Positions 3,905 through 28,889 of a stretch of 64,000 bases of DNA are shown one piece after another. The notes beneath the pieces are model-generated. The model had not been told where the DNA came from. It worked only from the letters and a program-made list of their open reading frames with translations, and ran no database searches. Location of the stretch: the NCBI GenBank assembly GCA_947301965.1, contig CAMYUM010000003.1:30127-94126 (forward strand). The letters are read 5' to 3'. This DNA comes from an uncultured Azospirillum sp. (lineage in GTDB: Bacteria; Pseudomonadota; Alphaproteobacteria; RF32; CAG-239). A program made the translations under genes and the position numbers. The number at the start of each line of letters is the position of its first letter. The first letter of the stretch is position 1.

Positions 3905-4055
3905 TTTTGCCTCATTGTTGAATTGATAGCAAATAAAAGCACAAAAACCAAGATGTTTTATAGTTTTTGTTGATATCTGTTCTGTAAATGTTATAGACAT
4001 GATTATAAAAACGATGTATGAAAAATGTGAAAGTGTAAGGCGTTAGGAAAACAAT

Positions 4056-8403: not shown

Positions 8404-11400
8404 TTATTCAAATGCGTACCTCAGAGATAGCATTCCGGTGTGTTCTTGGTATCCGGAACGATAAGTTCCCATATATGATACGGCAGCAGAAATGTTTTCG
8501 GTCAGTGATTTTGCAAAGCTTAGGCTCGTTTCATAACCTAAACGACGCAATTTGTCGCCGTCGACAACATAACCGCTTCCATTGGACAGATATACATGAG
8601 TGTTGTTTTTGTCAGCCATAAAGTCATAGGTTAAACCGAGATAGGCTTCTGCCCGAATATCATATATTTCTCTGGCAAATCTTAAACTGATGACACCCCG
8701 CAAAATATCAGCATTGTCGGCAGATACTTTTTGAGCGGCGCTATCGGTATATCGGTCTCGTTTGATGTGATAGTAGCGGAAACCTGCTTCCGGTGTGAAA
8801 TATTCAAATTGATAACCGGCCATGCTTGCAACAGATGCAACCCATACGTCATATCTGGCGTTATAAGTATCATCAAGAGCATATTTCTTTTCTTTATAAT
8901 TCGATTGTCCGTAGGAAATAATTCCATTGATAAACTGTCGGCAAGGCTTGTATTCCCCATAAACAAAGCCGGTGACAGAATTTATGTCTATGTCTCGGGA
9001 CATAATATCAACGTCTGTTCTGTCAATTTGTAAACCGGCACCGAACTTGTAAGCGCGGTCTAATTCTTTTTCAAGACCAAATATAATGCCGCGGCTGTTG
9101 GAGTTTGAACCATCAATATTTTGGCGAGTACGCATCTTGGTATCGCTCAAATAAGGATTGCCCCAGGCGGTAACGTCGCTGAATTCGTCACTCGATAATA
9201 AACCGATTTGTTTGTTGCGGAGATATGAATCAACGGTCTTAAATAAAATGGAATTTTGTTCTGTTACGGTATTTTGGACAACCGCAGTTTCTGTCGGAGC
9301 AAGAGCCTTGAGGTTATGGACAAATCCGGCAGCATCATGTTGCGCCAAAGCGGCAAGTTTATCTGCAGCAATTGCACCGCTCGATCCTTCGGCAAAAGGA
9401 GCTTCATCTACCCATGCTCCGGCGGCATTTGCTACCCAAGATCTGGCTCCTTGCTCTTTAGCAACATCTGCAGCAGTTGATTTTTGAAGAATAGAGAAAA
9501 CACCAAACTTGCCTTTGGTCTTGATAAATTTGTACATATTGTTTTCGGCAACATCAACGCCTTCTTCGGTATGTGATACATCTTTATCAGCAAAATCACC
9601 GTTGTGGCTGCCGGCTTTAATTAAAGTTACTTCGCCATAATTGATGCCTTGAGCCAGAGTAGCTTTTAGTTTTGCTCCGCTGTTGATGGTCATGTCGTCA
9701 GTAATATTTAACAGGCCGTGCTGTCCATCTTCAAGACCATTAATTTTTAATGATAATGTGGATGAACTATCAAGTTTCATAGATTTGAGATTAACGGTGT
9801 TGGCGCCAATGTCTATCTTAGAGTTTTTGGCGTTTATTGTATCGGTATTATCCAAATAATTTGAACCGACTTTTAATGTAGAATTATTAACATTAATTTT
9901 ATTGCCGCTGATGGTGTTGGACAGTGTCCAGTTATTGTTGACGTTGATTACGCCGTTGTTATTTGTGCTTGAGATTGCATTTGTAAGAGCGGTGCCGGTT
10001 TTCAAATTTAAAGTGCCATTGTTTGTAATATCGCCGTTAACAATAGTGTTAACCAAGTTTATTGTTCCGTTGTTTACGACGGAATTGCCAATTGTAGAAT
10101 TCTTTGTGGTCAAATTACCGGTATTGGTAATGTTGGCGTTGGTAACAGAGCCGTTTAACTGATTTGTTCCGGAAGTGGTCATATTAAACGCGGTAGCGCC
10201 GGTAATTGTGCCGTTGATAATGCTGTCTTTAATGCCTACGGTTGCGCTGCCGTTAGTAACATTTGCTATGGTAGAAGCCCCGCTGACGGTTACGTTATCA
10301 AAGTTTAACGCAGTAGCACCTTCGCCAAGTTGGAAACCATGTCCGTTAAGGTTGAGAGTTTCTGCAGCACCGCCGGAGATACCTTTGATGTTTAATGTTC
10401 CTTTGGTGTCACCCAAATCGTCGCCCACATTATATGTCTTACCTTGTTGATTAGCCGTAAAGTTTTTGGTTGCATTGGTAGTGTCGTTGTTGACCAATTT
10501 CAGAGTATCACCAAGAGAGGTGTCGGTAGTCGTGCCACCATCACGTCTTGAAAAAGCAACCTCAATTGAGAGTTTGTCGTCGCTCAATCCTAATTTGCCA
10601 TAATCGGTGCTGGCGGTGGTGGTGTGTTCCTGATATACTTTGTTCCAAGCGGTATTTGCTTCGATAGTATCTGTTGAAGTGGTCGCTCCCGATGTTCCAA
10701 TAATGTATTCCGTTGAATTAAATGCTGCTTGTACGGCACTACTCAATGCCAGTTTGAGGGTGCTTGATGTCGCCGGATTTAAGACTTGTACGCTGAAATC
10801 ATCGGCGAGAGAAGTTGTTGACGGATCCAAGATATTAACGGAAGTCAGGGTGAGAGTTCCGGAAGAGGCATTGGTCAAATTAAACGTATCGACGGAAGAA
10901 CTTGATAGATTCATATCTATGGCCAAATTGCCGTTACCGTTAATAGCACCGATGTCATGAGATGTGATGGTTCCGTTTGAAACAGTGATTGTTCCACTAT
11001 TTGCGTTTAACGTTCCTGCAACTTCGGCTCCACTATTTAGTGTCAACGTACTATTAACATATGTTGTACCGGTTCCGGCAATAGTCTTTGCCAATACGCC
11101 GGATAAGTACAAATTACTGCTGTTGGTGATACTTGAATCGGCAATATTTGCCGCGGTTGTGGTTAAATTACCGGTATTGGTAATGTTGGCGTTGGTAACG
11201 GCTCCATTTAATTGGCTGGTTCCGGAAGTGGTCATATTAAACGCGGTATCGCCAGTGATTGTACCATTGAGAATACTGTTTGTAACACCGATTGTAGCAG
11301 AACCGTTAGTAACGGTAGCTATGGCAGAACTTGAATTGACGGTTACGTCATTAAAGTTTAATGCGGTAGCATCATCACCGACTTGAAAACCCTGATGTGA

Positions 11401-14400
11401 GGCAAGATTAAGTGTCTCAGCGTTGCCGCCAGATACACCGTTGATGTTAACAGTGCCGTTGGTTGCACCTAAATCATCACTGAGGTTATATGTCGCACCT
11501 TGTTGATTAGCAGTAAAGTTCTTGGTCGTATTAATTGTATCTTGGTTAACCAACTTTAAGGTATCACCCAAAGGACCATCGTCAACTCTGTCTCCTTGAA
11601 CGGTTGTTTCATGATCTTGTATATAACCAATGGAATCATTAGTAGTAGTTGTTGTTGTAAGACCTATAGTTCCGTAATGTTCTATGGTATCTTCTCTATG
11701 CCAACTAGAGAGTTGGTCGTTCCAATTTGTTGTTGCAGTTATTTGATCTGACCCTGTAACGGTTTGTGTAGTTTCAAATAACTTATGTATGTCGCTACCA
11801 CCTAGCTGTGATATAACCGCATCGGATAAAGCGAGCTGTAGGGCAGATCCGGAGGCATTATTTATTATTTGTACTTTATAATTGGCATCTACTCCGGTAA
11901 AGTCTCCGGTGAGGTTCAAATGTGATAGAGTTATGGTGCCGGCAGAATTGTTTGTGGCAGAAATGACATCAGCCTGTTTGCCTGAGGCGTCAAAATCTAT
12001 GGTATAATTTACATTGGCATTACTGTTAAGGTGATTTATTGCATATGTATCATATGAAGACGTGTTGCCGAGATTTATAGAACCGGCAGTAAAGTTAACG
12101 GTGTTGGCATTGGTAAATGTATCCGTGTTAAAAATTAATCCACCGTTACTATCGTTCATAGTTGCATTTGCCATGCCGACGGTTCCATTGATGGTATTAT
12201 TACCGCTTAATGTTAATCCGTAAGCGGCAGTACTTGCGGCAATATTACCATTGAGAATACTGTTTGTAACACCGATTGTAGCAGAACCGTTAGTAACGGT
12301 AGCTATGGCAGAACTTGAATTGACGGTTACGTCATTAAAGTTTAATGCGGTAGCATCATCACCGACTTGAAAACCCTGATGTGAGGCAAGATTAAGTGTC
12401 TCAGCGTTGCCGCCAGATACACCGTTGATGTTAACAGTGCCGTTGGTTGCACCTAAATCATCACTGAGGTTATATGTCGCACCTTGTTGATTAGCAGTAA
12501 AGTTCTTGGTCGTATTAATTGTATCTTGGTTAACCAACTTTAAGGTATCACCCATGTTCTCGTAGGAAGTATCACCGCCTTCTGTTCTGGTAACTGTAAT
12601 GCCAATAGAGTCATCTGTCGTGGTCTTTGTTTTCAGGCCTAGTTGTCCGTAGATTTCTTTATCGGAAATAACGGTTGTTTGATATATTTTGTCCCATGCT
12701 GTTGTGGTAGCAATTGCTTCGTCGGTTGTTGAACCTTCGATCGTTTCTAATAAATGTTCTGAGTCCAGGCCTGATGCAAGTTGCAATTTTAAAGTAGAAT
12801 CGGCATTTCCATTACTAATAATTTGTATTACGTCTTCAGTACTTAAATCTTCGTAATTGCCAATAATATTAATATTCCCAATGGTAATGGTTCCGTGAGA
12901 CTCTGCTGTTGTAGTAATCTTGTCTGCCGTTTTTTCGGTAGCATCAACGTCAATTTTATAGATTAAGCCATTTGAACCTAGCTCAACTGTGTTAATGGTG
13001 TTTGAATCAATATGATCATTAATTTGATTGATTTCTCCGCTATTGTTATCGGTTGTCAGCAAGGCAATTTGATTAAAATTTCCGTAGGTGATGTCGCCAT
13101 TTGTTTGAGTAATTTTACCTAAAATTAATTTAGCACCATTGTATAAATTTACGTTACTGTTAAGTATGTCGTTGTTAAATACATAAGTTCCGCCCTGAAT
13201 GCCGGTTTTGTTGTTAATGTTGATTGTACCTGAAGAATAAAGTCTGCCGCCAAATGAAATTTTTTGCCCCTCGGCAGCGTTTAGTGATATCGTACCGCCA
13301 TCATTGAATATATCACTATAATTTTCGCCGGCTTTGTTGTTATAAAAAACGATATCTCCATCATCACTTGTAGCATCTATAGATATTGTTCCTCGGTTGT
13401 ATATTGCTCCGCCTTTTCCCCCTGCAATATTGCCGAGAAAACTTCCACGGATGCTGCCATATGTGGCGTTACTACCTACATAGATGGCACCACCGGAGCC
13501 ACCGGCTTTGTTGTTAATAAAGTCTCCGATAATGTTATTTATTTTGCTGTTGGTGTTCGTATAGGTATATATTGCTCCGCCATCCTCACCGGCAGTGTTG
13601 GCAATAAAGTCACTGGTAATGGTACCAATAGTGGCACTGTTATGATAGATTGCTCCAGCTTTCCTGAGAGCACTATTACCAATAAAATCACCGGTGATAT
13701 AATTTCTATTTCCTTGTTTTGTATATATTGCACCACCACCATCAGTAGGTTTGGAGGGGGCATCAACTTGCCATAAACCTTCAGATCTGTTACCAATAAA
13801 ATTACCGCGTATTTCATTGATTGTCTGGTCCGTTCCAAGATTTAGCGCGCCGGCATTTTCCTTATATGCTACGTTGCCAATAAAATTGCCAATGACGGAA
13901 GTTATTTTAGTTTTACCACTAATTGCGACAGCTCCGCCTCCATATTTGTGTATGGTAGAATTGTTGATGAAATCACTTTGAATAGTGTCAGTATAGGTGT
14001 GTGCAGAAGTGCTTTTAAGAAATACTGCACCACCTTGACCTGCTTCTTCAATATTAAAAAATAATTTATTATTAACAGCAAGTGTTGCCTCTTCGTCTCC
14101 GCTTCCACTTTCATTTGCGTAACGTGTTTCTGTTTCGGTATAACCAGTGGGCAGAGTATATTGATATATATAGTCTTTGACTGGTGAATCGCCGATGACA
14201 TGTGGTATTTCGAACGAGATTGATCCGGTGGCTGTTGATGTTCCTTCATTCCAAGAAGGATCGGCAGTTCCTGATGTCCAAGATATATTATCAATATCTT
14301 TAAGATTGATGTTGTAATATTGTGTATTACCGCTTCCATCATTGACGGCAAAGTCGTAGCTTTCGGATGTTGCATTAGACCGTTCCCATGCGGTTTCTGC

Positions 14401-14514
14401 TGCCGCTGTTGTCGGTAAGAAAAAGACACCGCAAAGTAAACTGACTGTTGTAGTCAATCTGTGGATTCTTAAGTTTTTTATCGGTTTGTAAGTCAACATT
14501 AGTTTTTCCGTCAC
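8404..14514 (-). CDS. giant autotransporter (2036 aa) with polymorphic-membrane-protein (Pmp)-type GGAI/FxxN repeats, ~330-aa tandem passenger repeats and a C-terminal beta-barrel translocator
   Basis: N-terminal signal (LLCGVFFLPTTAAA); repeated GGAIY/GGAVF + FIGN/FINN motifs; C-terminal ~280 aa ending ...LSLRYAFE with aromatic terminus typical of autotransporter barrels. Confidence 0.8.
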   Translation of the reverse strand: MTEKLMLTYKPIKNLRIHRLTTTVSLLCGVFFLPTTAAAETAWERSNATSESYDFAVNDGSGNTQYYNINLKDIDNISWTSGTADPSWNEGTSTATGSISFEIPHVIGDSPVKDYIYQYTLPTGYTETETRYANESGSGDEEATLAVNNKLFFNIEEAGQGGAVFLKSTSAHTYTDTIQSDFINNSTIHKYGGGAVAISGKTKITSVIGNFIGNVAYKENAGALNLGTDQTINEIRGNFIGNRSEGLWQVDAPSKPTDGGGAIYTKQGNRNYITGDFIGNSALRKAGAIYHNSATIGTITSDFIANTAGEDGGAIYTYTNTNSKINNIIGDFINNKAGGSGGAIYVGSNATYGSIRGSFLGNIAGGKGGAIYNRGTISIDATSDDGDIVFYNNKAGENYSDIFNDGGTISLNAAEGQKISFGGRLYSSGTININNKTGIQGGTYVFNNDILNSNVNLYNGAKLILGKITQTNGDITYGNFNQIALLTTDNNSGEINQINDHIDSNTINTVELGSNGLIYKIDVDATEKTADKITTTAESHGTITIGNINIIGNYEDLSTEDVIQIISNGNADSTLKLQLASGLDSEHLLETIEGSTTDEAIATTTAWDKIYQTTVISDKEIYGQLGLKTKTTTDDSIGITVTRTEGGDTSYENMGDTLKLVNQDTINTTKNFTANQQGATYNLSDDLGATNGTVNINGVSGGNAETLNLASHQGFQVGDDATALNFNDVTVNSSSAIATVTNGSATIGVTNSILNGNIAASTAAYGLTLSGNNTINGTVGMANATMNDSNGGLIFNTDTFTNANTVNFTAGSINLGNTSSYDTYAINHLNSNANVNYTIDFDASGKQADVISATNNSAGTITLSHLNLTGDFTGVDANYKVQIINNASGSALQLALSDAVISQLGGSDIHKLFETTQTVTGSDQITATTNWNDQLSSWHREDTIEHYGTIGLTTTTTTNDSIGYIQDHETTVQGDRVDDGPLGDTLKLVNQDTINTTKNFTANQQGATYNLSDDLGATNGTVNINGVSGGNAETLNLASHQGFQVGDDATALNFNDVTVNSSSAIATVTNGSATIGVTNSILNGTITGDTAFNMTTSGTSQLNGAVTNANITNTGNLTTTAANIADSSITNSSNLYLSGVLAKTIAGTGTTYVNSTLTLNSGAEVAGTLNANSGTITVSNGTITSHDIGAINGNGNLAIDMNLSSSSVDTFNLTNASSGTLTLTSVNILDPSTTSLADDFSVQVLNPATSSTLKLALSSAVQAAFNSTEYIIGTSGATTSTDTIEANTAWNKVYQEHTTTASTDYGKLGLSDDKLSIEVAFSRRDGGTTTDTSLGDTLKLVNNDTTNATKNFTANQQGKTYNVGDDLGDTKGTLNIKGISGGAAETLNLNGHGFQLGEGATALNFDNVTVSGASTIANVTNGSATVGIKDSIINGTITGATAFNMTTSGTNQLNGSVTNANITNTGNLTTKNSTIGNSVVNNGTINLVNTIVNGDITNNGTLNLKTGTALTNAISSTNNNGVINVNNNWTLSNTISGNKINVNNSTLKVGSNYLDNTDTINAKNSKIDIGANTVNLKSMKLDSSSTLSLKINGLEDGQHGLLNITDDMTINSGAKLKATLAQGINYGEVTLIKAGSHNGDFADKDVSHTEEGVDVAENNMYKFIKTKGKFGVFSILQKSTAADVAKEQGARSWVANAAGAWVDEAPFAEGSSGAIAADKLAALAQHDAAGFVHNLKALAPTETAVVQNTVTEQNSILFKTVDSYLRNKQIGLLSSDEFSDVTAWGNPYLSDTKMRTRQNIDGSNSNSRGIIFGLEKELDRAYKFGAGLQIDRTDVDIMSRDIDINSVTGFVYGEYKPCRQFINGIISYGQSNYKEKKYALDDTYNARYDVWVASVASMAGYQFEYFTPEAGFRYYHIKRDRYTDSAAQKVSADNADILRGVISLRFAREIYDIRAEAYLGLTYDFMADKNNTHVYLSNGSGYVVDGDKLRRLGYETSLSFAKSLTENISAAVSYMGTYRSGYQEHTGMLSLRYAFE
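11264..11570. repeat. 307-bp segment identical to 12248-12554 (intragenic tandem repeat unit, period ~984 bp)
   Basis: read directly: identical string ccattgagaatactgtttgtaacaccgattg...ggtatcaccca at both positions. Confidence 0.85.
12248..12554. repeat. second copy of the identical 307-bp segment; a diverged third unit lies at ~10120-10520
   Basis: as above; encodes duplicated DTLKLVNQDTINTTKNFTANQQGATYNLSDD... block. Confidence 0.85.
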
Positions 14515-14604
14515 GTCAAATCTGTATAAGTGTGGTATTACAGACTTTCCAAGTATATTTTATAAAATTTAAAAAAGTTTTAAATTTACGAGTAAAAGGT
14601 ATTT

Positions 14605-16893
14605 TTATCGTCCGTTGTTTTGGTTTTTGCTTAGTGGCAAAATAGTCTTATTGTCTCTAAGCTGTTGCTCGTCAGGTATGCTGGCAATAAGATTATTGGT
14701 TTTATAAAGCCATTGCTTGAAAGCAGGTATGTTCTCTCGGGGCAAAACATATTGCTTACTTGCGCCAAAGTAAGATAAAATCAAAATTTTTTGGTCTTTT
14801 TGCTTTTCAAGTGTCTGCCAAAGCTGTGATTTTAGGCCGTGATCTGCTACGAAGAAGCTACCATCACCGCGTTTAAGTTTCCACTGGTATATAAATTGTG
14901 CCTTAATGGTGTCTGTCTGTTCAATTTGTCTTCCTTGAACACACTGTTTCTTGGGCCTTGATGGCTTGTCAGCTGTTGTTTTAGGAGCTTTTGTCTTACG
15001 AGGTATGCTCTCACCTTTTTGATAGACTGTAAAACCACCAATTTGATAAAGTTTTTGCTTGAAAGCGGGTATGTTTTCTTTAGGCAGAACAAAAGCGTAT
15101 TGAACCTGAACCAAAAGACCATTGTTTTCTTGTTTTTTGATGGTGTTCCAGAGTTGAGATTTTTGTTTGTAAGAGAGTTTTTTCCCATCGCTTGTGAACA
15201 AACGCCATCCGGCACAAAAGGAAGTTTGTGTAATATCAGTTTCAGTCCTCTGGCGCACATGGGGAGCAGGTTTTTTAGGGAATTTTGTTTTTGAGGCAAT
15301 GATGCCTTTTTCCGTTAAAAGCCATCGTTCAAGTGCAGGAATGTTTTCTTCGGGTAAAACATAAGTTCGGTTATTGCCACTAAAAGCATAAATGAAAAAT
15401 TTGTTACGATTTAAAGATTTAAATTCCTTAAAAAGTGCAGATTTTGCTTTTGTACCCTTAATGGATTGTCCGTCAAGCCCATTTAGGTGCCAGTAGCGGA
15501 ATTGTGTTGTTGAAAGGTCGGTTTCAAGCTTTTGGCGTAATGATAGGGTGTCGTTGAGGATTTTTGTCTCTGATGCAATGATGCCCTTTGCTGTAAGAAG
15601 CCATTGCTGGAAGGCGGGTATATTTTCTTGTGGCAAGACATATTGTTTGTAAGTTTTAGATTTGCCGTGTTTAACTGGGATGAAGAGGTTTTGTTGGTTT
15701 AATAGGCATTCTTCAAAAAGTAAGGATTTGGTTTTATGATTCCAGATAGGGTCATTATTTTTATCTCTTACAAACCAAGATCTGCAAAAGTTGTTCTTAG
15801 TTAAATCAGTTTTAAGCAATTGTCTTAAGGGTTCCAGGGGTTTCTGAGCAATTAACCCTTTTTGTTTGATAAGCCATTGCTGAAAAGCGGGTATATTTTC
15901 TTGAGGTAAAACAATAACAGGATGTGCTGAAGAAACACAGACAAATAGATTTGGATTTTTGGATTTAACTTCTTCAAAGAGTGCGATTTTAGTTTCGTAG
16001 TTTAGGACTTTGCCTTTTTCAGACATTATCAGCCAAGAGGTAGAAAATTGTGATTTGGTGATATCGGTATTAAGTTTTGCTCTAACGGATTTTAGAGGCT
16101 CTTGAGCTATAATATGTTTTTTTTGCAAAAGCCAATCCTTAAAGAAATGAATGTTCTCCTGAGGTAAAATAAAAGATGTTTTTCCATGTGACGGAACCAT
16201 GATGAATAGGTCTTTGTGTTTTGAAGATTTAAACTCGTTCCAAAGAGAAGTTCTGATTGGTCCTGGCACAGATTTGCCATTTTCGTTAGTTAGAATCCAA
16301 TGAGTATAAAACTGCAGATTGGTCAAATCAGTTTCAAGCACTTTTCGTTGAGATTTTCTTGTTTTTGAAGCTGTAATGCCTTTTTCTTCAATAAGCCATT
16401 GTTGAAATGCAGAGATGTTTTCCTGTGGTAAGGCGAGGGCGGAAAATCCGGTAGTTGAAGCGGTGACGAAAAGTTCTTGATGTGAATTTCGAAAAGTGTT
16501 CCATAGATTGATTCGATCTTGAATGGTGGGGGCTTTGCCGTTTTTGTCTCTTAAATGCCAAGAATGCACAAAATTGCTTATTAAAAGATCCGTATCGAGC
16601 TTGGGTCTTTGTGACTTGGCCAAAATAAGGCCTTTTTCTGCCCAAAGGCGTTTTTTAAAAGCAGGAATGTTTTCTTCGGGTAAAACGTGAATGAAGTGAT
16701 ATTTTGCTGAAAGCTGAATAAAGAGTTCGGGGGCAAATAACACAAGTTCATCCCAAATCTTTAGTTTTTGTTTTCGGTCAATAGCTTTGCCGTTTTGGTC
16801 CTTCAGACCGCATGCTTTGAAGAACTTGTTTCGGGTTAAATCGGTATCAAGTTTGGTGCGTTCATTTTGAGTAAAAGGAGATGTCTCTTCCAT
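14605..16893 (-). CDS. tandem-repeat protein (762 aa; ~8 units of ~88 aa with VLPQENIPAFQQWL...KGIIA and KLxTDLTxxxF..W motifs); function unknown
   Basis: self-similarity obvious in the translation; no signal peptide; Lys-rich. Confidence 0.75.
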   Translation of the reverse strand: MEETSPFTQNERTKLDTDLTRNKFFKACGLKDQNGKAIDRKQKLKIWDELVLFAPELFIQLSAKYHFIHVLPEENIPAFKKRLWAEKGLILAKSQRPKLDTDLLISNFVHSWHLRDKNGKAPTIQDRINLWNTFRNSHQELFVTASTTGFSALALPQENISAFQQWLIEEKGITASKTRKSQRKVLETDLTNLQFYTHWILTNENGKSVPGPIRTSLWNEFKSSKHKDLFIMVPSHGKTSFILPQENIHFFKDWLLQKKHIIAQEPLKSVRAKLNTDITKSQFSTSWLIMSEKGKVLNYETKIALFEEVKSKNPNLFVCVSSAHPVIVLPQENIPAFQQWLIKQKGLIAQKPLEPLRQLLKTDLTKNNFCRSWFVRDKNNDPIWNHKTKSLLFEECLLNQQNLFIPVKHGKSKTYKQYVLPQENIPAFQQWLLTAKGIIASETKILNDTLSLRQKLETDLSTTQFRYWHLNGLDGQSIKGTKAKSALFKEFKSLNRNKFFIYAFSGNNRTYVLPEENIPALERWLLTEKGIIASKTKFPKKPAPHVRQRTETDITQTSFCAGWRLFTSDGKKLSYKQKSQLWNTIKKQENNGLLVQVQYAFVLPKENIPAFKQKLYQIGGFTVYQKGESIPRKTKAPKTTADKPSRPKKQCVQGRQIEQTDTIKAQFIYQWKLKRGDGSFFVADHGLKSQLWQTLEKQKDQKILILSYFGASKQYVLPRENIPAFKQWLYKTNNLIASIPDEQQLRDNKTILPLSKNQNNGR

Positions 16894-18394: not shown

Positions 18395-18661
18395 ATGAAA
18401 AAAGCTATATACCTGTTTTTGTTGTGTTTGTTATTGCCGGCGTGTCAGGAGCTTGACGGTTTGTTAAACACAAACAATTTTGTTGTTTCAGAAGCCGATG
18501 ACAATCGCATGGTGGTGTTGAACACCAATACGCGTGTTTATCACGACCCAAAATGTAAAATTGCAAAAAGTTGCTCTAAAAATTGTGTTGTAACGACAAA
18601 ATACGATGCAAAGTCAAAAGGAGCAACCGCCTGCCAAAAGTGTAACGGCGGTAATAAATAG
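18395..18661 (+). CDS. small Cys-rich lipoprotein (88 aa; lipobox LLPAC; YHDPKC...C..C zinc-ribbon-like motif)
   Basis: signal + lipobox; six Cys; GAAAGGTGG RBS. Confidence 0.6.
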   Translation: MKKAIYLFLLCLLLPACQELDGLLNTNNFVVSEADDNRMVVLNTNTRVYHDPKCKIAKSCSKNCVVTTKYDAKSKGATACQKCNGGNK

Positions 18662-18682
18662 TTTAGTTTTTTACAAAAAAAA

Positions 18683-18716
18683 GCGGAACAGCTAGTGCTG
18701 TTTCCACTCTTTTTTG
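18683..18716. terminator. bidirectional terminator between convergent genes (GGAACAGC-tagt-GCTGTTTCC + T-run)
   Basis: A8 upstream, T6 downstream. Confidence 0.65.
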
Positions 18717-18733
18717 ATGTCTTCGAGGTGAGA

Positions 18734-19945
18734 CTAGTTTTTGGCAAAGAAGGTGATGTAGCCTGTAGCGGCTTTTCCGTTAATGGTCATCTGGATTTTG
18801 ACTTCGACGTTGTAGATGTCGTCTTCAACGCTGGTCCAAGTGGTTTTAATGACTCGGACACTGTTTTCATCAAACATCATCTTGTCGGTCAACGGCTCAT
18901 ATAATATGCCATTATCAAGGTACACGTTTTCACGCTTAAACGCTATTTCTGTGGTAAAAACACCAAGATCCAGCTCCAGAATATCGGTATGTAATGTCTT
19001 GAGCAGATATGGAGATCCGCTGGAGAGTTTTTCAATCGACTTGGCATCGATCTTGAGTGTTGCCTTTTTGAACTGGAGGTCTGCACGGTTTGCAATTTTT
19101 ACCACATTGCCATTTGCAGGATGATAGCTGGTGTTTTCGCCGTAAGCATAAGCCGTTTCGGTAAATGTTTCAGTGTCCTTGGTTCCATCGGAATATTCCG
19201 ATGTTACTTTTGCCTTAGAAACAAAACCGGCACGCCCATCCTGATTTTTCAGGGGCAGCAAGCTTTTCTCTACCATATTGCTGGACAGGATATACTTGCC
19301 GTTTATCTTTTCAATCGGGCGTGAAGCTACAACCTCGTTGGTTACAACATAAGTTTCGCGGTTAACCATCACTGTAATTGAGTGATTGTAGATTCTGCGA
19401 GCATAGGCTTTACCATCCTTTTCTACCGAACTGGCGCTTTTTACGGTCATATCATTGTTGACAATCTCGTCATAGCCATAGTATGGCATTGTTATCTTGG
19501 TATAGCCGTCATCGTATTCAGCCACCTGAAAGGTGAGAGGATACTCAAATTTGATTGTGCCATAATCAACCGTATATACCTGTACCGAATCGGTAGTTTT
19601 GATGTATGCGTCGTGTTTTGATGCAGTTGCTTTGCGAGATGTTTTGACTTTTGGTTCATAAGTTGCCCAGTTGGCAACAGTCACATTTTCTTTCACGTTT
19701 TTTAAGCTGTTGATCAGCTCAATCGAGAACTTACTATCGAATTCAGCTCTGGTCTGACCATATACCTGAATCCAGCTTTTGTAAGAGATAGTAGTACCGC
19801 CGTCATTGGCTTCAACAGTCACAGTGGCATCTCTGCCACTGTCGGCAACCTCGCTGGTTGCAATGTTAGAGATAAAGGTCTCCTTCTCGCATGCGGCGAG
19901 GACAATCACCGCCAAGGCAGCGATGATGGTGTTCACGTGTTTCAT
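18734..19945 (-). CDS. lipoprotein of unknown function (403 aa), GC-rich/foreign codon usage
   Basis: MKHVNTIIAALAVIVLAAC lipobox; hand-counted GC ~57% in a 60-nt sample vs ~32-38% in backbone samples. Confidence 0.7.
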   Translation of the reverse strand: MKHVNTIIAALAVIVLAACEKETFISNIATSEVADSGRDATVTVEANDGGTTISYKSWIQVYGQTRAEFDSKFSIELINSLKNVKENVTVANWATYEPKVKTSRKATASKHDAYIKTTDSVQVYTVDYGTIKFEYPLTFQVAEYDDGYTKITMPYYGYDEIVNNDMTVKSASSVEKDGKAYARRIYNHSITVMVNRETYVVTNEVVASRPIEKINGKYILSSNMVEKSLLPLKNQDGRAGFVSKAKVTSEYSDGTKDTETFTETAYAYGENTSYHPANGNVVKIANRADLQFKKATLKIDAKSIEKLSSGSPYLLKTLHTDILELDLGVFTTEIAFKRENVYLDNGILYEPLTDKMMFDENSVRVIKTTWTSVEDDIYNVEVKIQMTINGKAATGYITFFAKN

Positions 19946-20135
19946 AAGCTATAGGATTAAATATTGTTTGACAAAGACCATTAATCAAAATTTTCATCAC
20001 CGGCAATTGTTTGCCTTTTTTTCTAATGATAGCATTAATAATTTTGATTTGAGATTATGTTTTATACCCAGAGGGCGGTTTTTGTCAATATTGTTGAGTT
20101 GAATGATATTGTAAAATTCGGTGCATATGAAAATA

Positions 20136-20175
20136 CGAAAAAACCACTGCAGAGCAAATGCCTGCAGTGGTTTTG
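20136..20175 (-). terminator. rho-independent terminator for the 208+142-aa gene pair (CCACTGCAG...CTGCAGTGG; T-run on minus strand)
   Basis: 9-bp perfect stem; A8 on plus strand is T8 on the minus strand, immediately downstream of the stop at 20188. Confidence 0.65.
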
Positions 20176-20187
20176 GGTGTAAAGATT

Positions 20188-20616
20188 CTAGCTAGAGGAG
20201 AGCTCGGAAAAGTTCTGTTTCTGCAAGATTTGCTTGTAGTTGGAATAACCATTCCTGTCAAACTTCTCAGCGTAGAAGTGTAGGGCGCGATCGTAGAGAG
20301 GAAGTAATTGATATTCCTTTGGACGGTAATCGCAGGGATGCTCCAATACTCTTTCGGTCTCGGAAAGCAGTCTGTTGCACAGGGCATGCTCCAAACCGGC
20401 AGCAAGGCGTTTGAACATCGGCAATTGCGGACGATAATCTTCTCCCTTAGGACCGCTGATCCACTCGATTCGCTGCTGTGCGAGAGCCCAGCAGATCATA
20501 GTCTCGGGAGCTCCTGCAGGGAGAACTTGGTCTTTTACCTGCCACAGTACACCATCAGCATAAGCGACATTCTTGATTGCGGCGTCAAGAAGTTGTCTTT
20601 TTACTTCGTTGTTCAT
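20188..20616 (-). CDS. hypothetical protein (142 aa), GC-rich block
   Basis: ORF with non-biased composition; ~50% GC; no recognisable motif. Confidence 0.55.
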   Translation of the reverse strand: MNNEVKRQLLDAAIKNVAYADGVLWQVKDQVLPAGAPETMICWALAQQRIEWISGPKGEDYRPQLPMFKRLAAGLEHALCNRLLSETERVLEHPCDYRPKEYQLLPLYDRALHFYAEKFDRNGYSNYKQILQKQNFSELSSS

Positions 20617-20668
20617 GGTACAGGGGATTAAAAATCTACATAATCGTGCCTGTTATGTTTGGCAACAA

Positions 20669-21295
20669 TCAATACTCCTCGGCATCGCAGATGACTTTCT
20701 GGTTCACCATCATGTCAGGCAAGCCGCCTTTCATTCCGTAGAGAATGACGGTTGAGACATGGCGATCGAGGATTCTGTCGTAGATATCATGCAGATTCAA
20801 AGAATCTACCGTTATCTCGAAGGCTTTGACTCGGTCCAAATCCACGCTGGGTGGAATCTGCGAAAGGACTTCGTCAGTTCCGGGACGGAAAAAAACATAG
20901 TAGCCGCCGTACCTGTGATAGCAGGTAAACGAGGTAATAACCTCTAGTTCCGGCACTTCCAGGGGGACATCAGTTGTTCCGGTGTTGATGGTTACGATGT
21001 TTTCCGGTTTGAAATTGTAGAGGTAGCTCTGCCGGATATCGCACGGTTTGACGAACACGAGCTTGTCATCGGGCTTAAAATCTCCGTAAGAACGCTTGTC
21101 GCCGTTTCTGTCCAAGCGGACCAGTGGCTTAATTTTTACCGCACGCCTGGTGAGCTCATCAATGGGCATTTGATCTGCCTCTACGATGTGGCGATAGAGC
21201 GTGGCATAATTTTTAAGAGTGATGCCGCAAACCTCTTGCTTCAGTCTTTCCCCGAAAGAGTGAAGTTTTTCCTCGATGTAGTCTGAGTTGTACAT
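20669..21295 (-). CDS. hypothetical protein (208 aa), GC-rich block, likely co-transcribed with the 142-aa gene
   Basis: ORF; ~48% GC; 52-bp spacing to downstream gene, same strand. Confidence 0.55.
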   Translation of the reverse strand: MYNSDYIEEKLHSFGERLKQEVCGITLKNYATLYRHIVEADQMPIDELTRRAVKIKPLVRLDRNGDKRSYGDFKPDDKLVFVKPCDIRQSYLYNFKPENIVTINTGTTDVPLEVPELEVITSFTCYHRYGGYYVFFRPGTDEVLSQIPPSVDLDRVKAFEITVDSLNLHDIYDRILDRHVSTVILYGMKGGLPDMMVNQKVICDAEEY

Positions 21296-21398
21296 ATTGA
21301 AGGGTTTAAAATAATGGGAATAATTCTTATAAAACTGTGCTTTCTATATCATTTTTGGACAAAAAAGTCAAGTTTAAAACTGGAAGAAAGTTTTTTAT

Positions 21399-22921: not shown

Positions 22922-23204
22922 TTTAATAATATGACCGTGTCCTTGGCACGGGGTTTAATATTTATATAATAATAGTCTTTTGTTGCGTGTAACATATATA
23001 GGGATACAACATAAGTCAACATTAAAATCAGGCGTATATAGAAATTGAAAATGAAAAAACTTGGTTTTACCACTCTTTAGAAAGGGAGGCTTTAAATTTT
23101 GGTTTTATGTTAAAAAATAGATTTTATTATGTGAAAAATTTGAAGATATTGTGGAATGATGCTCTAAATTGGGAGTATCTGAAAATAAAAAGCGAGCGAA
23201 CAAA

Positions 23205-23240
23205 ATCCGCAGAACATGTGTTCTGCGGATTTTGATTCGG
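23205..23240. terminator. terminator with 12-bp perfect stem (ATCCGCAGAACA-tg-TGTTCTGCGGAT) immediately downstream of the 151-aa gene
   Basis: read directly; T-rich flanks on both sides. Confidence 0.7.
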
Positions 23241-23246
23241 ATTTTC

Positions 23247-23702
23247 TTAAATTTCATACCCACGATAACGTAGGATTTCGATGGTTAAACGCCCGAACAT
23301 GCGAGCTCTTGCGGCGTATTTCATGCATAAATCTCCATGGTTCGTAACGTCTACAGCTATGTCTGTGCGAATATCCCAAAGAGTAAATAAATCCAAAGGG
23401 GCCGTTTTAGGATCAGGCAGTTTTTCCAGATGGTAGAGCATACTATCAACATACAAATGCAAAGCCGCATCTTCCTTTGATAACCTCTCTTTGTTTAGGG
23501 CTTTTTTACAAACATCTGTCTGTACCAGGTCTTTTTGGAGGCCTTCGAAGCACATGCTTTCGTAGTGGCGTCGTGCCAGTAAGCAGGTTGTAGCAATGGG
23601 GCATGTTTTGCATTTGTTGCCACCAACATTGTAGTAGTTGGGTTCTAACTTTGGCTCGGAAGCGAATTCAAAGCCGACATCAAAAGGTGTCAACGGTTCC
23701 AT
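23247..23702 (-). CDS. hypothetical Cys-cluster protein (151 aa; CKTC-x5-C-x10-C)
   Basis: ORF; ~50% GC; metal-binding-like Cys spacing near N-terminus. Confidence 0.5.
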   Translation of the reverse strand: MEPLTPFDVGFEFASEPKLEPNYYNVGGNKCKTCPIATTCLLARRHYESMCFEGLQKDLVQTDVCKKALNKERLSKEDAALHLYVDSMLYHLEKLPDPKTAPLDLFTLWDIRTDIAVDVTNHGDLCMKYAARARMFGRLTIEILRYRGYEI

Positions 23703-23880
23703 AATTTAATAATGCATGGACTTTTACCATAGCAAGTTTTCTTGAGTTATATTTTAGATAATATTGTTAATAATTAGATAATGGATTCGGAGGGTAGATG
23801 AATTTTATCGAAAAAGCAAGAAAAAATTATATAGGATGTGGCTTTATTATTTAGTTGAACGAGACTATGAGTGTGATATT

Positions 23881-23921
23881 TATAATTTTAAAAGAAACCG
23901 CTCCCCCGGTAGGGAGAGCGG
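23881..23921 (-). terminator. terminator for the 160-aa gene (CCGCTCCCC-cggta-GGGAGAGCGG, T-rich on minus strand)
   Basis: imperfect 9-bp stem 18 nt downstream of stop 23939. Confidence 0.5.
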
Positions 23922-23938
23922 AAGATATGCAGGAACTT

Positions 23939-24421
23939 TTAATTCTCCTTCTTTTCTTTTTCCGTCACATACATTGCCTCGCGGCAGTGATAACACTTGG
24001 CCTTGTCCTCGGCGGTGTTGACGGCGTTGATGAGGTTTTCGGGCAGGGGGTGATCCCACTCGCCTTGGTCGTACTTGTTGACCAGAATGACCTCGATTTT
24101 TCCCTTTGCCTGTTCACCTTCGCCCTCTTTGAAGGCTCTGGTAATCCGGTAAACCTCGTGGATGAAGTCGCCTCTGTGGTGGTACGACTTGATGAGGTAG
24201 TAACCGGGGTGGACGGGAACGAGCGCGTGTTGCGCGCAGGATAAATGCCCGCCGCGGCGGATGTAGGTGGCTGTTGGCTTGGTGCCGTCGGCCTTGCAGA
24301 TGATGGTGGCATCACCTGTGTTTGTTGCTCCGCCGCCTTCCTCCCATACAGAAACGAGACCGCTCTTGGTGAGAGGAGCAAGCAAAATTGTGCCTTGGTT
24401 TTTCTTATTCGCCATACACAA
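23939..24421 (-). CDS. hypothetical protein (160 aa; His/Cys motifs SCAQH...SYHH...CYHC, possible zinc-finger/His-Me-like)
   Basis: ORF; ~48-60% GC; start may be the MANKK ATG at 24415. Confidence 0.5.
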   Translation of the reverse strand: MCMANKKNQGTILLAPLTKSGLVSVWEEGGGATNTGDATIICKADGTKPTATYIRRGGHLSCAQHALVPVHPGYYLIKSYHHRGDFIHEVYRITRAFKEGEGEQAKGKIEVILVNKYDQGEWDHPLPENLINAVNTAEDKAKCYHCREAMYVTEKEKKEN

Positions 24422-26952: not shown

Positions 26953-27519
26953 ATGGAAAAAATCGCAAGCTACTTTCGATTTGACATTACGCAGACAGTG
27001 CAGGTTTTGCTCTATAAAATGCGTATGGGAAACGGCAAGCGCTGGTCGGTTGAAAAAACTGCCGGCGGGCTGATTTTGCACCAGATTTATGAAGAAGGTG
27101 CAGAAAAAGAGGACAACCAAACCAAGGTCGAACTCAAGGGAAAACATACAATGATTATCACTACGGTGAGCGGGTTTGTGTACACAATTGTGGATAAGGA
27201 ACCCGACGGCGCCGAGGTGAGCTTTCATGGTCCGCTCAATGCGTTGCTGATGCAGTCGCTGATGCCGCGCATGACCTATGTCCCCGGGACGCTTATCGGC
27301 ATGAACAACCTGATGGACGACTACGTCTCTATAGGTGAGTATATGCGGTTGCGCCAAGAACGTCACAAAGGTAATGGTGAAGAAAATCCTCAAGACCGGT
27401 TCGGATGGCGTATCAATATGCGTTTCAACAACGAGCTGGTGCCGTGGTTCCCGGCCTTTAACGGCAACAAAAATGTTCCCAAAGACAAGGTCAGGAAAGG
27501 CAAGTTTACCCGTCGGTAA
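26953..27519 (+). CDS. hypothetical protein (188 aa), GC-rich orphan
   Basis: ORF; ~50% GC; own promoter candidate and terminator. Confidence 0.5.
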   Translation: MEKIASYFRFDITQTVQVLLYKMRMGNGKRWSVEKTAGGLILHQIYEEGAEKEDNQTKVELKGKHTMIITTVSGFVYTIVDKEPDGAEVSFHGPLNALLMQSLMPRMTYVPGTLIGMNNLMDDYVSIGEYMRLRQERHKGNGEENPQDRFGWRINMRFNNELVPWFPAFNGNKNVPKDKVRKGKFTRR

Positions 27520-27644: not shown

Positions 27645-28889
27645 TTAGAAGTTATATTGGAACTGAACGCCAACCATGTTACTGTAGTTGTCATGTCTGG
27701 CTTTGATGTTGCTAACTTCTCCAAGAGGAGTATAGCTTGTTTCATCAGTTCTGCCCTTGCTCATGAACAAGTGGGCATAACCGACGTCAACCTGCCAGTT
27801 CTTTGCCTGATAGCTGACACCGAGTGTGGTCCACAAACGGTTGGAATCAGGAATACGGGCCGTGCGGTGGAATTTATCACGAATCGGTGTCGGGTCGTAA
27901 GAAATACCGGCACGGAACGTCCACTCAGGAGAGTAGTAATAATCTACACCCAAAGAATAAGTCCAAGTGTTTTTCCATTTTTCCGGAACGGCTGCAGTGA
28001 TACCAGTGGTCGGAGAACGCATTACAAAGTCATCAAAGATGTCCCATTTGGTCCAACGAACGGCACCAGAAAGACCAAATTTGTCATTGAGTTTGTGATA
28101 CCCAGAAATTAATAACTGGCTCGGTAAGGTCATTTTTGAAACGCCGGGATATGTGCCATCCTTAGCTGTGCCGGTGCGTTTGATTGTATGGTCTCCGGTA
28201 ACTTTTTGAGCAGTATTCAGGCGGTAAGAAACACCGAAACGAGTGTCTTTGACCGGTTCATACATAATACCAAAGTTGTAGGCAAATTCCCAACCGTCCA
28301 AGTCAAATTCGTTACGAGAGTTCGGCATAAGTGGGTGAGCAGTATTTATAATATCGCCGTGAACATAACGATAGATTAAGCTTGCGCCTAAAGTAACCTG
28401 ATCAGTTACCTTATAAGCTCCGCCGAAAGCTACGTCAACAACATCCAATTCAGTACTGATACCATGATGAGCCCCGAACCATTCTTTGTTGTAAATAGAA
28501 GCCAAGCCGAACGGAGTATAAACACCACCACCAATTACAGCCTTATCATTGATTTTGTATTGTGCGAATCCCGACGGTAAGAACTTATAAAAATTCATTT
28601 TTCCGTAAGGTTTGTCAGCGACGGGGGTGCCGTTGTAATAGGTTGTTCCATCAACAAAAGAGTGCATTTGAACGGTTGATAAACCTAATTGTCCGCCGGT
28701 GCCTTTCAAGATCATACCGGCAGGGTTGAATGAAATAGCAGAATAGTCATCACCGACCACGCCGATGCCGGCAAAAGCGCGGCCAAGACCTGTGGCAGAG
28801 TATTCGTTGAGTTGATAGCCTGATGCATTGGCATTATTAGCGGCAACCAAGCTCAAGCCCAGCAATAAAAACTTAGTGTAGTTCTTCAT
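27645..28889 (-). CDS. fadL: outer-membrane long-chain fatty acid / hydrophobic compound transporter, FadL/TodX/OmpP1 family
   Basis: signal peptide then SGYQLNEYSATGLGRAFAG N-terminal motif; C-terminal aromatic residue (F). Confidence 0.8.
   Translation of the reverse strand: MKNYTKFLLLGLSLVAANNANASGYQLNEYSATGLGRAFAGIGVVGDDYSAISFNPAGMILKGTGGQLGLSTVQMHSFVDGTTYYNGTPVADKPYGKMNFYKFLPSGFAQYKINDKAVIGGGVYTPFGLASIYNKEWFGAHHGISTELDVVDVAFGGAYKVTDQVTLGASLIYRYVHGDIINTAHPLMPNSRNEFDLDGWEFAYNFGIMYEPVKDTRFGVSYRLNTAQKVTGDHTIKRTGTAKDGTYPGVSKMTLPSQLLISGYHKLNDKFGLSGAVRWTKWDIFDDFVMRSPTTGITAAVPEKWKNTWTYSLGVDYYYSPEWTFRAGISYDPTPIRDKFHRTARIPDSNRLWTTLGVSYQAKNWQVDVGYAHLFMSKGRTDETSYTPLGEVSNIKARHDNYSNMVGVQFQYNF

Follow-up and report, generated by a model that had tools for sequence, protein, structure and literature searches.

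Genes and features of the locus

The block at positions 18734-21295 lies in a 64-kb window (the whole stretch of DNA analysed) from an uncultured gut or rumen alphaproteobacterium, and holds three genes on the minus strand (Table 1). A gene for a 208-aa protein is followed after 52 bp by one for a 142-aa protein, and a gap of 242 bp separates the latter from the gene of a 403-aa lipoprotein. This anatomy agrees with the preliminary description, which had reported the three open reading frames, the 52-bp spacing, a ~240-bp region upstream of the lipoprotein gene and a strong terminator behind the gene pair. The terminator stem (20174-20140 on the minus strand, 14 bp, T-tract after it) is 13/13 complementary in an inverted-repeat check. 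The hairpin is also kept 3′ of the 140-aa gene in the related genome L001. The 208-aa and 142-aa genes are probably co-transcribed. A second hairpin, between the lipoprotein gene and its convergent neighbour, is likely to serve as a bidirectional terminator; in L034, a relative at 88% identity, a hairpin equivalent in position to this second one comes directly after the 208-aa gene and is followed by the 88-aa gene. Sigma-70-like matches in the region upstream of the 208-aa gene are not meaningful.

Table 1. Positions of genes, putative regulatory elements and variable segments at the locus (window coordinates)
Feature	Position	Strand	Description
208-aa gene	20669..21295	-	Solitary, lineage-restricted, conserved cytoplasmic protein; three N-terminal helices and beta-rich core
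Upstream region of the 208-aa gene, 103 bp	21296..21398	-	Presumed promoter of the 208/142 transcript
142-aa gene	20188..20616	-	Soluble accessory protein; variable cassette restricted to the species cluster
Intrinsic terminator of the 208/142 unit	20130..20174	-	14-bp stem, 7-nt loop, T-tract
Intergenic region, 242 bp	19946..20187	-	Presumed to hold a separate promoter for the lipoprotein gene
403-aa lipoprotein gene	18734..19945	-	Signal peptide with LAAC lipobox (Cys19), all-beta two-part body, Y-D-D-G motif at 144-147
Hairpin separating the lipoprotein gene from the convergent 88-aa gene	18685..18704	.	Detected on both strands; likely bidirectional terminator
Segment missing in L034 (142-aa gene, terminator, lipoprotein gene)	18662..20652	.	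Defined by blastn junctions
Within-species divergent tract, window versus L035	19950..20790	.	Defined by sliding identity and mismatch density

As the preliminary description had anticipated, none of the three proteins belongs to a nameable family: scans against Pfam, NCBIfam, PADLOC and PHROGs (E<=0.01) are all empty, and so is a PADLOC scan that includes the immediate neighbours. The block is surrounded by transport, envelope and housekeeping genes, with no defence genes among them. Its borders carry a Na/Ca exchanger and small hypothetical genes, no mobility genes and no significant flanking repeats; the junction alignments are free of scars, and an Rfam scan of 17-25 kb, which would include tRNA genes, gives no match. 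Homologs of the block proteins have no clear association with phages or plasmids. The single match in a viral collection (L040) is a truncated homolog that sits beside a Lon-like protease and has no evident viral genes around it. A literature search on the lineage yielded MAG catalogue papers, with nothing on the three proteins.

Base composition

The block had been described as compositionally foreign, with ~48-57% GC against ~32-38% for the backbone, on the basis of hand counts in 60-nt samples. The arithmetic of the five counts is exact (recomputed values 0.567, 0.50, 0.483, 0.317 and 0.383). Windows of 60 nt, however, have a mean GC of 0.411 with an sd of 0.084, and the five samples are ordinary scatter chosen at the extremes; those giving a ‘32-38% backbone’ are unrepresentative of the window. 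Measured over its whole length, the block reaches 44.5% GC where the window averages 41.2% (z=2.06), and the claim is overstated. The methodological lesson is that a few hand-counted 60-nt samples gave the impression of a break of 15-20 GC points where the true excess is ~3 points. The block is nonetheless one of the four most GC-rich stretches of its size in the window, since only 1.3% of same-size windows reach its GC or above (at about 27.5-27.8 kb, 31.8 kb and 38.3-38.6 kb). Its tetranucleotide distance is unremarkable (z=1.34, with 8.5% of windows deviating more). With the 64-kb window as host reference, no sharp break in GC, GC3 or tetranucleotides is seen at the block borders. The real tetranucleotide outlier of the window lies at 9-11.5 kb.

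The claim of GC3-rich codons holds in direction and less so in degree. Against a reference of 0.43±0.07, GC3 is raised in the lipoprotein gene (0.498, z=1.05), the 142-aa gene (0.538, z=1.66) and the 208-aa gene (0.608, z=2.68), but these values are matched or surpassed in two further small genes (23939-24421 with 0.683 and 26953-27519 with 0.608). The 208-aa gene is enriched in C-ending codons at two-fold and four-fold sites. Members of its family in L003 and L004, set in other neighbourhoods, share the GC3 excess, and the distant homologs in L006 and L007 do not. Strand was considered as a cause and rejected, other minus-strand genes being GC3-poor. Expression fared no better: the PPDK gene, probably highly expressed, is GC3-poor (GC3 0.374, four-fold GC 0.285), so that codon bias tied to expression does not readily explain the persistently high GC3. 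Within the explanation that we find the most probable as a whole, the three genes have had their mildly raised GC3 for a long time, and it does not betray a recent import from a foreign source.

The conserved 208-aa gene

The 208-aa gene belongs to a family of 41 relative clusters, found in 25 species-representative genomes, all of them (25/25) MAGs of uncultured gut or rumen Alphaproteobacteria, and is present in every relative examined. Conserved motifs (IKPLVR, F-x-CYHRYGGY, RPG-x-DEV-x-QIP and LDRHVSTVILY) and invariant residues, among them H127, E142, Q146 and E160, mark the family alignment, and the gene evolves with a dN/dS of 0.06-0.19. The AF2 model has a pLDDT of 91.4, and a fold search of the PDB finds no counterpart. 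Sequence searches of the PDB with the family profile and the single sequence return noise only (FABP and eL29 at E≥0.2). No transmembrane segment or signal peptide is found. The protein would thus be soluble, with a predicted three-helix N-terminus and a beta-rich core bearing invariant His, Glu and Gln; we infer an enzyme or a ligand- or metal-binding protein with a cellular function independent of any partner.

Neighbours of the family vary by subclade (SecY-like, Ffh-like, aldose-epimerase and HAD genes), and local synteny is kept inside each subclade. Each subclade has a different gene downstream, frequently one with a housekeeping role or a convergent one. Unrelated ORFs of 142, 101, 66 or 65 aa occupy this slot in different subclades, and in several subclades the small ORF is closely coupled to the 208-family gene (spacing -8 to 26 nt). 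No hidden homology is detected among these small families, or between them and the 208-aa family (hhalign probability <1%), and the window holds no paralogs of the 208-aa or lipoprotein families.

Comparison with relatives dates the gene pair. L001 keeps a 208+140 pair next to genes homologous to the 435-aa and 2036-aa ones, and the synonymous divergence from the window is in step between the pair (dS 1.05-1.26) and its flanks (1.22), with GC3 remaining at 0.61-0.63. Matching dS and high GC3 retained in both lineages indicate that the pair is old, and not recent DNA awaiting amelioration. The preliminary description had named orthologs in syntenic position and of native composition as grounds against its own proposal; for the pair this holds in part, since the orthologs are syntenic, but they are GC3-rich as well. 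Against L034, the 208-aa gene has a dS of 1.24 and the GC3-rich gene at 23939-24421 one of 1.03, whereas the adjacent Na/Ca-exchanger and 148-aa genes, with 0.33-0.39, are 3-4 times less diverged. The 208-aa gene may therefore have been exchanged between relatives, and its inheritance would not be strictly vertical, although it appears to be resident in the genome and passed on vertically, as part of a family specific to the lineage. Identity between the window and L034 falls from 5′ to 3′ within the gene. A clean crossover inside it was considered and rejected, as the window, L034 and L001 are roughly equidistant in three-way segments and the 3′ third is generally more variable.

The variable 142-aa gene

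The 142-aa protein lacks any match to families (Pfam, NCBIfam, PADLOC, PHROGs), PDB entries, phages or plasmids. Its gene occurs only in this species and in L001 and L002, and the sole relative outside the species is P0093 of L001, at 78% identity. It is under purifying selection (dN/dS 0.12 between the window and L001, 0.08 between the window and L035). In L034 the gene is absent and the 208-aa gene intact; the blastn junctions of the missing segment place L034 position 4840 at window position 20653 and L034 position 4877 at window position 18661. In L036 a 92-bp deletion shifts the frame of the 142-aa gene, though the 208-aa protein is 97.6% identical.

Two deep alleles of the 142-aa gene coexist inside one species. 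Between the window and L035 the divergent tract takes in the gene, the intergenic regions on either side of it and the final ~100 nt of the 208-aa gene, and has an identity of 62-92% against 99-100% in the flanks; the 242-bp intergenic region by itself is 91.7% identical. Synonymous divergence is 0.64 for the 142-aa gene, 0.087 for the 208-aa gene and 0.067 for the Na/Ca exchanger. Two genes outside the block deserve mention. Within the species no hot spot is stronger than FadL (dS 0.83), which has an average GC3 (0.453), and a 188-aa gene with a GC3 of 0.61 is 100% identical between strains. The pattern at the 142-aa gene suggests a small accessory cassette, in a slot just 3′ of the 208-aa gene, that would share the 208-aa transcript up to the hairpin at 20174-20140. 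Such a cassette would be functional yet dispensable, and recombination between strains may swap, lose or inactivate it.

The lipoprotein gene

The lipoprotein begins with MKHVNTIIAALAVIVLAAC, which includes an LAAC lipobox. The pattern [LVI][ASTVI][GAS]C is found at MKHVNTIIAALAVIVLAA-C19, hydropathy reaches its maximum of 1.93 at residues 7-25, Cys19 is invariant across 72 family members and one relative carries the source label ‘lipoprotein’. These features match those of lipoproteins cleaved by signal peptidase II, and the 403-aa gene, with its own upstream region, presumably encodes a protein processed and lipidated in this manner. The family, an unnamed one, comprises 124 cluster representatives. 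None of the 72 relatives, nor the protein itself, has a Pfam match, the cadherin models PF00028 and PF17803 included. A PDB sequence search with the family profile matches the signal peptide only, and a fold search of the PDB finds no counterpart of the predicted fold, which is modelled with a pLDDT≈91, as is that of the 208-aa protein. The mature part is modelled almost wholly as long antiparallel beta-hairpins, which recalls Borrelia OspA, an all-beta surface lipoprotein. A profile segment at ~108-180, containing the conserved Y-D-D-G motif, resembles 6-26 repeats of giant multi-cadherin proteins that carry T9SS sorting tails, an indirect likeness to cadherin-like or bacterial Ig-like modules. 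The protein is probably an all-beta, adhesin-like or ligand-binding component of the envelope.

Its taxonomic reach was sampled in five contexts, each a chromosome of an uncultured Alphaproteobacteria MAG. Relatives adjoin TolB and EttA in L037 and L038 (named Alphaproteobacteria), genes homologous to those for the S8 peptidase and the Fer4_20 oxidoreductase of the window in L039, and a formate-THF ligase in L008; in L021 the relative lies about 5 kb from the 208-aa homolog of the same genome. GC3 of the relatives is equal to or below that of neighbouring genes. The gene is missing in both of the closest sister species (L034 and L001), and its closest relative outside the species, at 59% identity, is that of L008, in DNA of 48-50% GC, so that import from a higher-GC relative within the group is conceivable. 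Apparent indels in L035 were discarded, being a run of N in the scaffold. The lipoprotein would be gained or lost within a variable cell-envelope locus, of which the 88-aa, 435-aa, 762-aa and 2036-aa genes are also part.

Origin of the block and of its composition

The 208-aa, 142-aa and lipoprotein genes differ in their patterns of presence and absence, and are thus not one unit. Among the sister genomes the 208-aa gene is found in all relatives examined, the 142-aa and lipoprotein genes are missing from L034 and the lipoprotein gene from L001 as well. In a weaker form the preliminary reading stands for part of the block: the 142-aa and lipoprotein genes are flexible gene content, exchanged or lost between close relatives, and the 208-aa gene is not patchy in this way. 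Taken together, the data make it probable that the block is a mosaic, made up of three chromosomal units of an uncultured gut or rumen alphaproteobacterium that are independent of one another, and not one imported island. The preliminary proposal, by which the whole 2.6-kb block would be a recent island from a higher-GC donor, appears unlikely. It draws on the rank of the block among the four GC-richest stretches, on the GC3 of all three genes, on the patchy distribution of the 142-aa and lipoprotein genes among close relatives and on relatives in the group that reach 46-50% GC, including L008 with the nearest lipoprotein homolog. However, an excess of ~3 GC points with ordinary tetranucleotide usage is a faint signature, and the 208/142 pair is syntenic in L001, as diverged as its flanks and unchanged in its high GC3. 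The 208-aa family keeps a raised GC3 in other neighbourhoods (L003, L004). Mobility genes, tRNA genes and flanking repeats are all lacking, as is a common pattern of presence and absence, and the named or contextualised homologs of the block proteins, namely the 208-aa family and the sampled lipoprotein contexts, are confined to MAGs of uncultured gut or rumen Alphaproteobacteria, a group that itself spans about 34-49% GC. For the 208-aa gene, recent import is already contradicted.

Two further proposals concern composition only. GC-biased gene conversion has been proposed for bacteria, and raised GC3 could be a by-product of frequent homologous recombination, a possibility of some substance that we nevertheless regard as doubtful. 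GC3-rich genes coincide with local hot spots of divergence or recombination, namely the 142-aa tract among strains of the species and, in the comparison with L034, the genes of 208 and 160 aa, and high GC3 held over dS>1 in separate lineages fits a continuing process better than a historical accident. On the other hand, FadL, hottest within the species, is average in GC3, and the GC3-rich 188-aa gene does not vary between strains; the sample amounts to a handful of genes. Codon selection for high expression of small genes, which would agree with the C-ending codons of the 208-aa gene and with GC3 maintained across lineages, is improbable given the GC3-poor PPDK gene and the L006 and L007 homologs without excess, in a window that offers no reference set of ribosomal-protein genes. 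The mosaic of three chromosomal units resembles the flexible genomic islets and strain-variable cell-envelope loci known as a general concept for bacterial populations: near-identical strains differ by presence or absence and by deep alleles, chiefly where envelope proteins are encoded (FadL, the lipoprotein and a surface protein of 2036 aa), and the lack of mobile-element scars fits homologous recombination in conserved flanks. It differs in that the unit is very small (about 0.8-2 kb) and includes the cytoplasmic 142-aa protein besides envelope components.

A proposed toxin or defence function

The preliminary description had likened the layout of the gene pair and the lipoprotein to toxin/immunity or small defence modules. 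On such a reading the pair, possibly working with the lipoprotein, would be a toxin-antitoxin or toxin-immunity module or a small system of anti-phage defence. The likeness to type II toxin-antitoxin and toxin-immunity pairs lies in two small, co-oriented and closely spaced genes with a dedicated terminator, the second of them variable and dispensable; presence or absence and deep within-species alleles are frequent in conflict genes, and tightly coupled, varied small ORFs follow 208-family genes in several subclades. Yet neither protein has a match in PADLOC, Pfam, NCBIfam or PHROGs, nor a PDB sequence match, and the pairing is not conserved, since the downstream genes are unrelated and often housekeeping or convergent. 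The setting is chromosomal and housekeeping, not defensive, and homologs are not found on phages or plasmids. The 208-aa gene also survives intact where its partner is deleted (L034) or frameshifted (L036), which rules out a 208-aa toxin with the 142-aa protein as its essential antitoxin; this persistence bears on that model and leaves the reverse one, with the 142-aa protein as toxin, unaffected. We hold such a function to be very unlikely.

It is tempting, though highly speculative and with very little chance of being right, to see in the 208-aa protein and its interchangeable downstream ORF a new two-component conflict system of gut Alphaproteobacteria. The downstream partner might then be a diversifying specificity or immunity element, or the 142-aa protein a toxin restrained by the conserved 208-aa protein, and the variable lipoprotein could belong to the same phage- or competitor-facing locus. 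If true, this would account for the deep within-species alleles and the presence or absence of the 142-aa gene.

Nothing in the locus points to a new biological mechanism. As the mosaic favoured above, it offers a compact case of gene flux at the micro-scale (cassette swap, loss, frameshift) in an uncultured gut or rumen alphaproteobacterial lineage. It also defines two uncharacterised families, a lineage-specific cytoplasmic protein of 208 aa and an all-beta lipoprotein of ~400 aa with about 124 clusters; as both have confident predicted folds without PDB counterparts, they are reasonable targets for structural and functional genomics of the lineage.

As a feature, the block at 18734–21295 is of an ordinary kind: a short, flexible stretch of the chromosome of a poorly known lineage, carrying uncharacterised genes specific to that lineage. 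It reveals no new system. What gives it value is a pair of new protein families, both structurally uncharacterised, together with a clean micro-example of cassette-level variation.

Gene layout and base composition

The open reading frames, spacings and signals of the preliminary description agree with the coordinates in the table, with the gaps of 52 bp (208-aa/142-aa genes) and 242 bp (142-aa/lipoprotein genes), with the 14-bp stem of the terminator and with the LAAC lipobox containing Cys19 at the lipoprotein N-terminus.

Features of the block and other genes of the window discussed in the text
Feature	Position	Strand	Basis or remark
340-aa DNA methylase gene	2978-4000	(-)	
2036-aa gene	8404-14514	(-)	
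762-aa gene	14605-16893	(-)	
88-aa gene	18395-18661	(+)	
403-aa lipoprotein gene	18734-19945	(-)	ORF call
Terminator	20174-20140	(-)	14-bp stem and T-tract
142-aa gene	20188-20616	(-)	ORF call
208-aa gene	20669-21295	(-)	ORF call
151-aa gene	23247-23702		
Terminator of 160-aa gene	23921-23898		strong, 10-bp, GC-rich
160-aa gene	23939-24421	(-)	
188-aa gene	26953-27519	(+)	
FadL/TodX gene	27645-28889	(-)	

The block had been called GC-atypical from five 60-nt hand counts, which are numerically exact but unrepresentative (60-nt windows: mean 41.1%, sd 8.4%). The GC content is 41.15% for the whole window and 44.5% for the block (z = 2.06 versus same-size windows), a value equalled near 27.5, 31.8 and 38.4 kb. 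Tetranucleotide usage does not set the block apart (z = 1.34); the real outlier of the window lies at 9–11.5 kb. The compositional signal is therefore weak, and what stands is a moderately raised GC3, above all in the 208-aa and 142-aa genes. Values are 0.498 for the lipoprotein gene, 0.538 for the 142-aa gene and 0.608 for the 208-aa gene, versus 0.426 ± 0.068 over 53 ORFs, and they are as high or higher in two other small genes, both hypothetical. The 160-aa gene has the top GC3 of the window (0.683); its exact TTG-start ORF is missing from the protein collection, and translation probably begins at the ATG two codons further on. The 188-aa gene, without a Pfam family, has the same GC3 as the 208-aa gene (0.608) and is 100% identical between strains; thus, high GC3 is not always paired with high divergence.

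Age and divergence of the 208/142 pair

Two related loci (L001 and L002) carry the pair next to homologs of the 435-aa and 2036-aa genes of the window, with identities of 80% for the 208-aa protein and 78% for the 142-aa protein. Between the window and L001, the pair has diverged at synonymous sites as much as its flanks (dS 1.05 for the 208-aa gene, 1.26 for the 142-aa gene and 1.22 for the flanking 435-aa gene), and the 208-aa gene has a GC3 of 0.61 and 0.63, respectively. Members of the 208-aa family also exceed their neighbours in GC3 in different neighbourhoods (L003, 0.56; L004, 0.53), and do not in the distant low-GC loci L006/L007 (0.30). Since GC3 stays high past dS > 1 in separate lineages, the pair is not un-ameliorated recent DNA. 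For this persistently higher GC3, our favoured guess is GC-biased gene conversion at recombination hot spots; expression-linked codon bias seems a less likely cause.

In comparison with an 88%-identity relative (L034), dS is 1.24 for the 208-aa gene and 1.03 for the GC3-rich 160-aa gene, versus 0.33 and 0.39 for the adjacent Na/Ca-exchanger and 148-aa genes. This excess suggests allele exchange between related lineages; a clean crossover within the 208-aa gene could not be placed. Another small replacement site is found ∼2 kb from the block (window 23026–23889), where L034 has a 309-aa TOD1_MUCI70-family gene (1390–2457) in place of the 151-aa gene.

The 208-aa family comprises 41 clusters at 90% identity, and the 208-aa gene is under purifying selection (dN/dS 0.06–0.19). 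Its sharply conserved motifs are IKPLVR, F-x-CYHRYGGY-x-F-x-RPG-x-DEV-x-QIP, AFE and LDRHVSTVILY; H127, E142, Q146 and E160 are among the invariant residues of the family alignment, and C125, R137, D141 and D177-R178-H179 among the near-invariant ones. No signal peptide or transmembrane segment was found in the 208-aa protein. The gene is solitary in 33 loci, and its downstream neighbour varies with subclade, local synteny being kept within each. This neighbour can be an ORF (140/142, 241, 101, 66 or 65 aa), a convergent gene, or a gene for a HAD hydrolase, an aldose epimerase or an Ffh-like or SecY-like protein. The small ORF families show no homology to each other or to the 208-aa family (hhalign probability <1%). 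The 208-aa homolog of L006 has prophage-like genes (Phage_capsid_2, head–tail connector; 10512–16630) ∼2 kb downstream; in L007, with an identical 208-family protein, acetyltransferase, resolvase and YpsA-like genes replace them, marking a variable or prophage insertion site in another lineage.

The 142-aa gene as a variable cassette

Outside the species, the 142-aa gene has a single cluster of relatives (P0093, 78% identity), and searches for family, PDB, phage and plasmid matches to the protein gave none. Its low dN/dS (0.12 versus L001, 0.08 versus the same-species contig L035) marks it as a real gene, though one that is dispensable and whose alleles are mobile. It is lacking in L034, where a hairpin and the 88-aa gene come next, in that order, after the stop codon of the 208-aa gene, and in L036, of the same species and with a 97.6% identical 208-aa protein, it carries a 92-bp frameshifting deletion. 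Against L035, a discrete tract (∼19950–20790) is only 62–92% identical, with flanks at 99–100%; it spans the 142-aa gene, both intergenic regions and the final ∼100 nt of the 208-aa gene, and its dS is 0.64 versus 0.07–0.09 for its neighbours. No repeats or element scars were found at the junctions. Elsewhere, the gene for a FadL/TodX outer-membrane transporter is 83% identical to L035/L036 between flanking genes at 99–100% (dS 0.83, dN/dS 0.09), a pattern resembling allelic replacement, or else a balanced polymorphism, of an outer-membrane protein gene.

The lipoprotein and the envelope locus

A word-indexed search gives one relative of the lipoprotein and an exhaustive profile search 124 representatives (96 at E ≤ 1e-10), mostly 400–430 aa long. 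Over a 72-sequence alignment, Cys19, Y55 and D119 are invariant and Y144, D146, G147 and P154 nearly so; no member has a meaningful Pfam match. Sampled relatives have chromosomal settings in Alphaproteobacteria MAGs: beside TolB, RuvX and EttA, named by their sources as alphaproteobacterial (L037/L038), beside homologs of the S8 peptidase (47% identity) and Fer4_20 oxidoreductase (63%) of the window (L039), beside formate-THF ligase (L008), and ∼5 kb from the 208-aa homolog of the same genome (L021). The gene is absent from L034 and L001. In L036 (11113–12000, a JGI contig of exactly 12,000 bp), homology ends at lipoprotein codon 129 (window 19560) and runs into an FtsW/RodA-family gene, either a real truncating rearrangement or a chimeric or cut assembly.

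The lipoprotein gene is at the edge of a variable envelope locus, which also holds the 88-aa lipoprotein-like protein, the 435-aa gene, a 762-aa repeat protein and a 2036-aa PMP-repeat protein. The 762-aa protein, of no family, has about seven to eight ∼90-residue repeats, undetectable at the DNA level, each ending in LP[QEKR]ENI[PH][AF][FL] (7 matches, spacing 86–114 aa); its gene is absent from the L001 locus and 99.9% identical in L035. The 2036-aa protein, with a weak Chlamydia PMP-repeat match, probably belongs to the variable surface or autotransporter-like proteins; no stretch of the window deviates more in tetranucleotide usage than its gene (about 9.2–11.5 kb), and within the species the 3′ part of the gene falls to 88% identity versus 99.9% for neighbours. 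The Cys-rich 88-aa protein begins like a lipoprotein (LLLPAC) and matches an Ada Zn-binding domain below threshold. Its gene has moved relative to the pair: it is downstream of the lipoprotein gene in the window, immediately behind the 208-aa gene in L034 and upstream of that gene in L001 (539–805).

Origin and possible function

Because the three genes differ in distribution and history, the block is not one unit. The horizontal acquisition proposed earlier holds in a diluted form, as flux of the 142-aa and lipoprotein genes among relatives, and not as one recently imported unit: the 142-aa cassette and the lipoprotein gene would have been gained, lost and allele-replaced by recombination among related gut Alphaproteobacteria. 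The suggested toxin/immunity or defence module fails every testable criterion except gene layout. Against it stand the lack of a family match and of conserved pairing, the survival of an intact 208-aa gene without the 142-aa gene, the housekeeping surroundings and the lack of a mobile-element link. The polarity might be reversed, the 142-aa protein being the toxin and the 208-aa protein a conserved antidote, or a conserved gene might be accompanied by a diversifying small partner; both readings draw on the variability of the slot downstream of the 208-aa gene, and positive support for them ends there.

Host and chromosomal setting

The window is ordinary chromosomal DNA, encoding QueA, a DNA methylase, PPDK, TilS, FtsH, a GlmM-like protein, UvrC, Obg, a two-component system, FadL and an S8 peptidase. 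The named homologs and all species-representative genomes with the 208-aa family (25/25) are MAGs of uncultured gut/rumen Alphaproteobacteria, such as RUG803 ‘Rhodospirillaceae’, UBA2723, RGIG isolates and ‘Azospirillum sp. 51_20’; GC content among loci of this group ranges from about 34% to 49%. No restriction partner is evident in the ORFs next to the 340-aa N6/N4 DNA methylase (PF01555), a possible orphan methyltransferase that has no relation to the block ∼15 kb away. GC skew is positive in essentially all 1-kb bins (1–64000) and its cumulative value climbs monotonically to 10.5; the whole window is thus on one replichore, with the plus strand leading, and the lagging strand carries the block genes and the large surface-protein genes.
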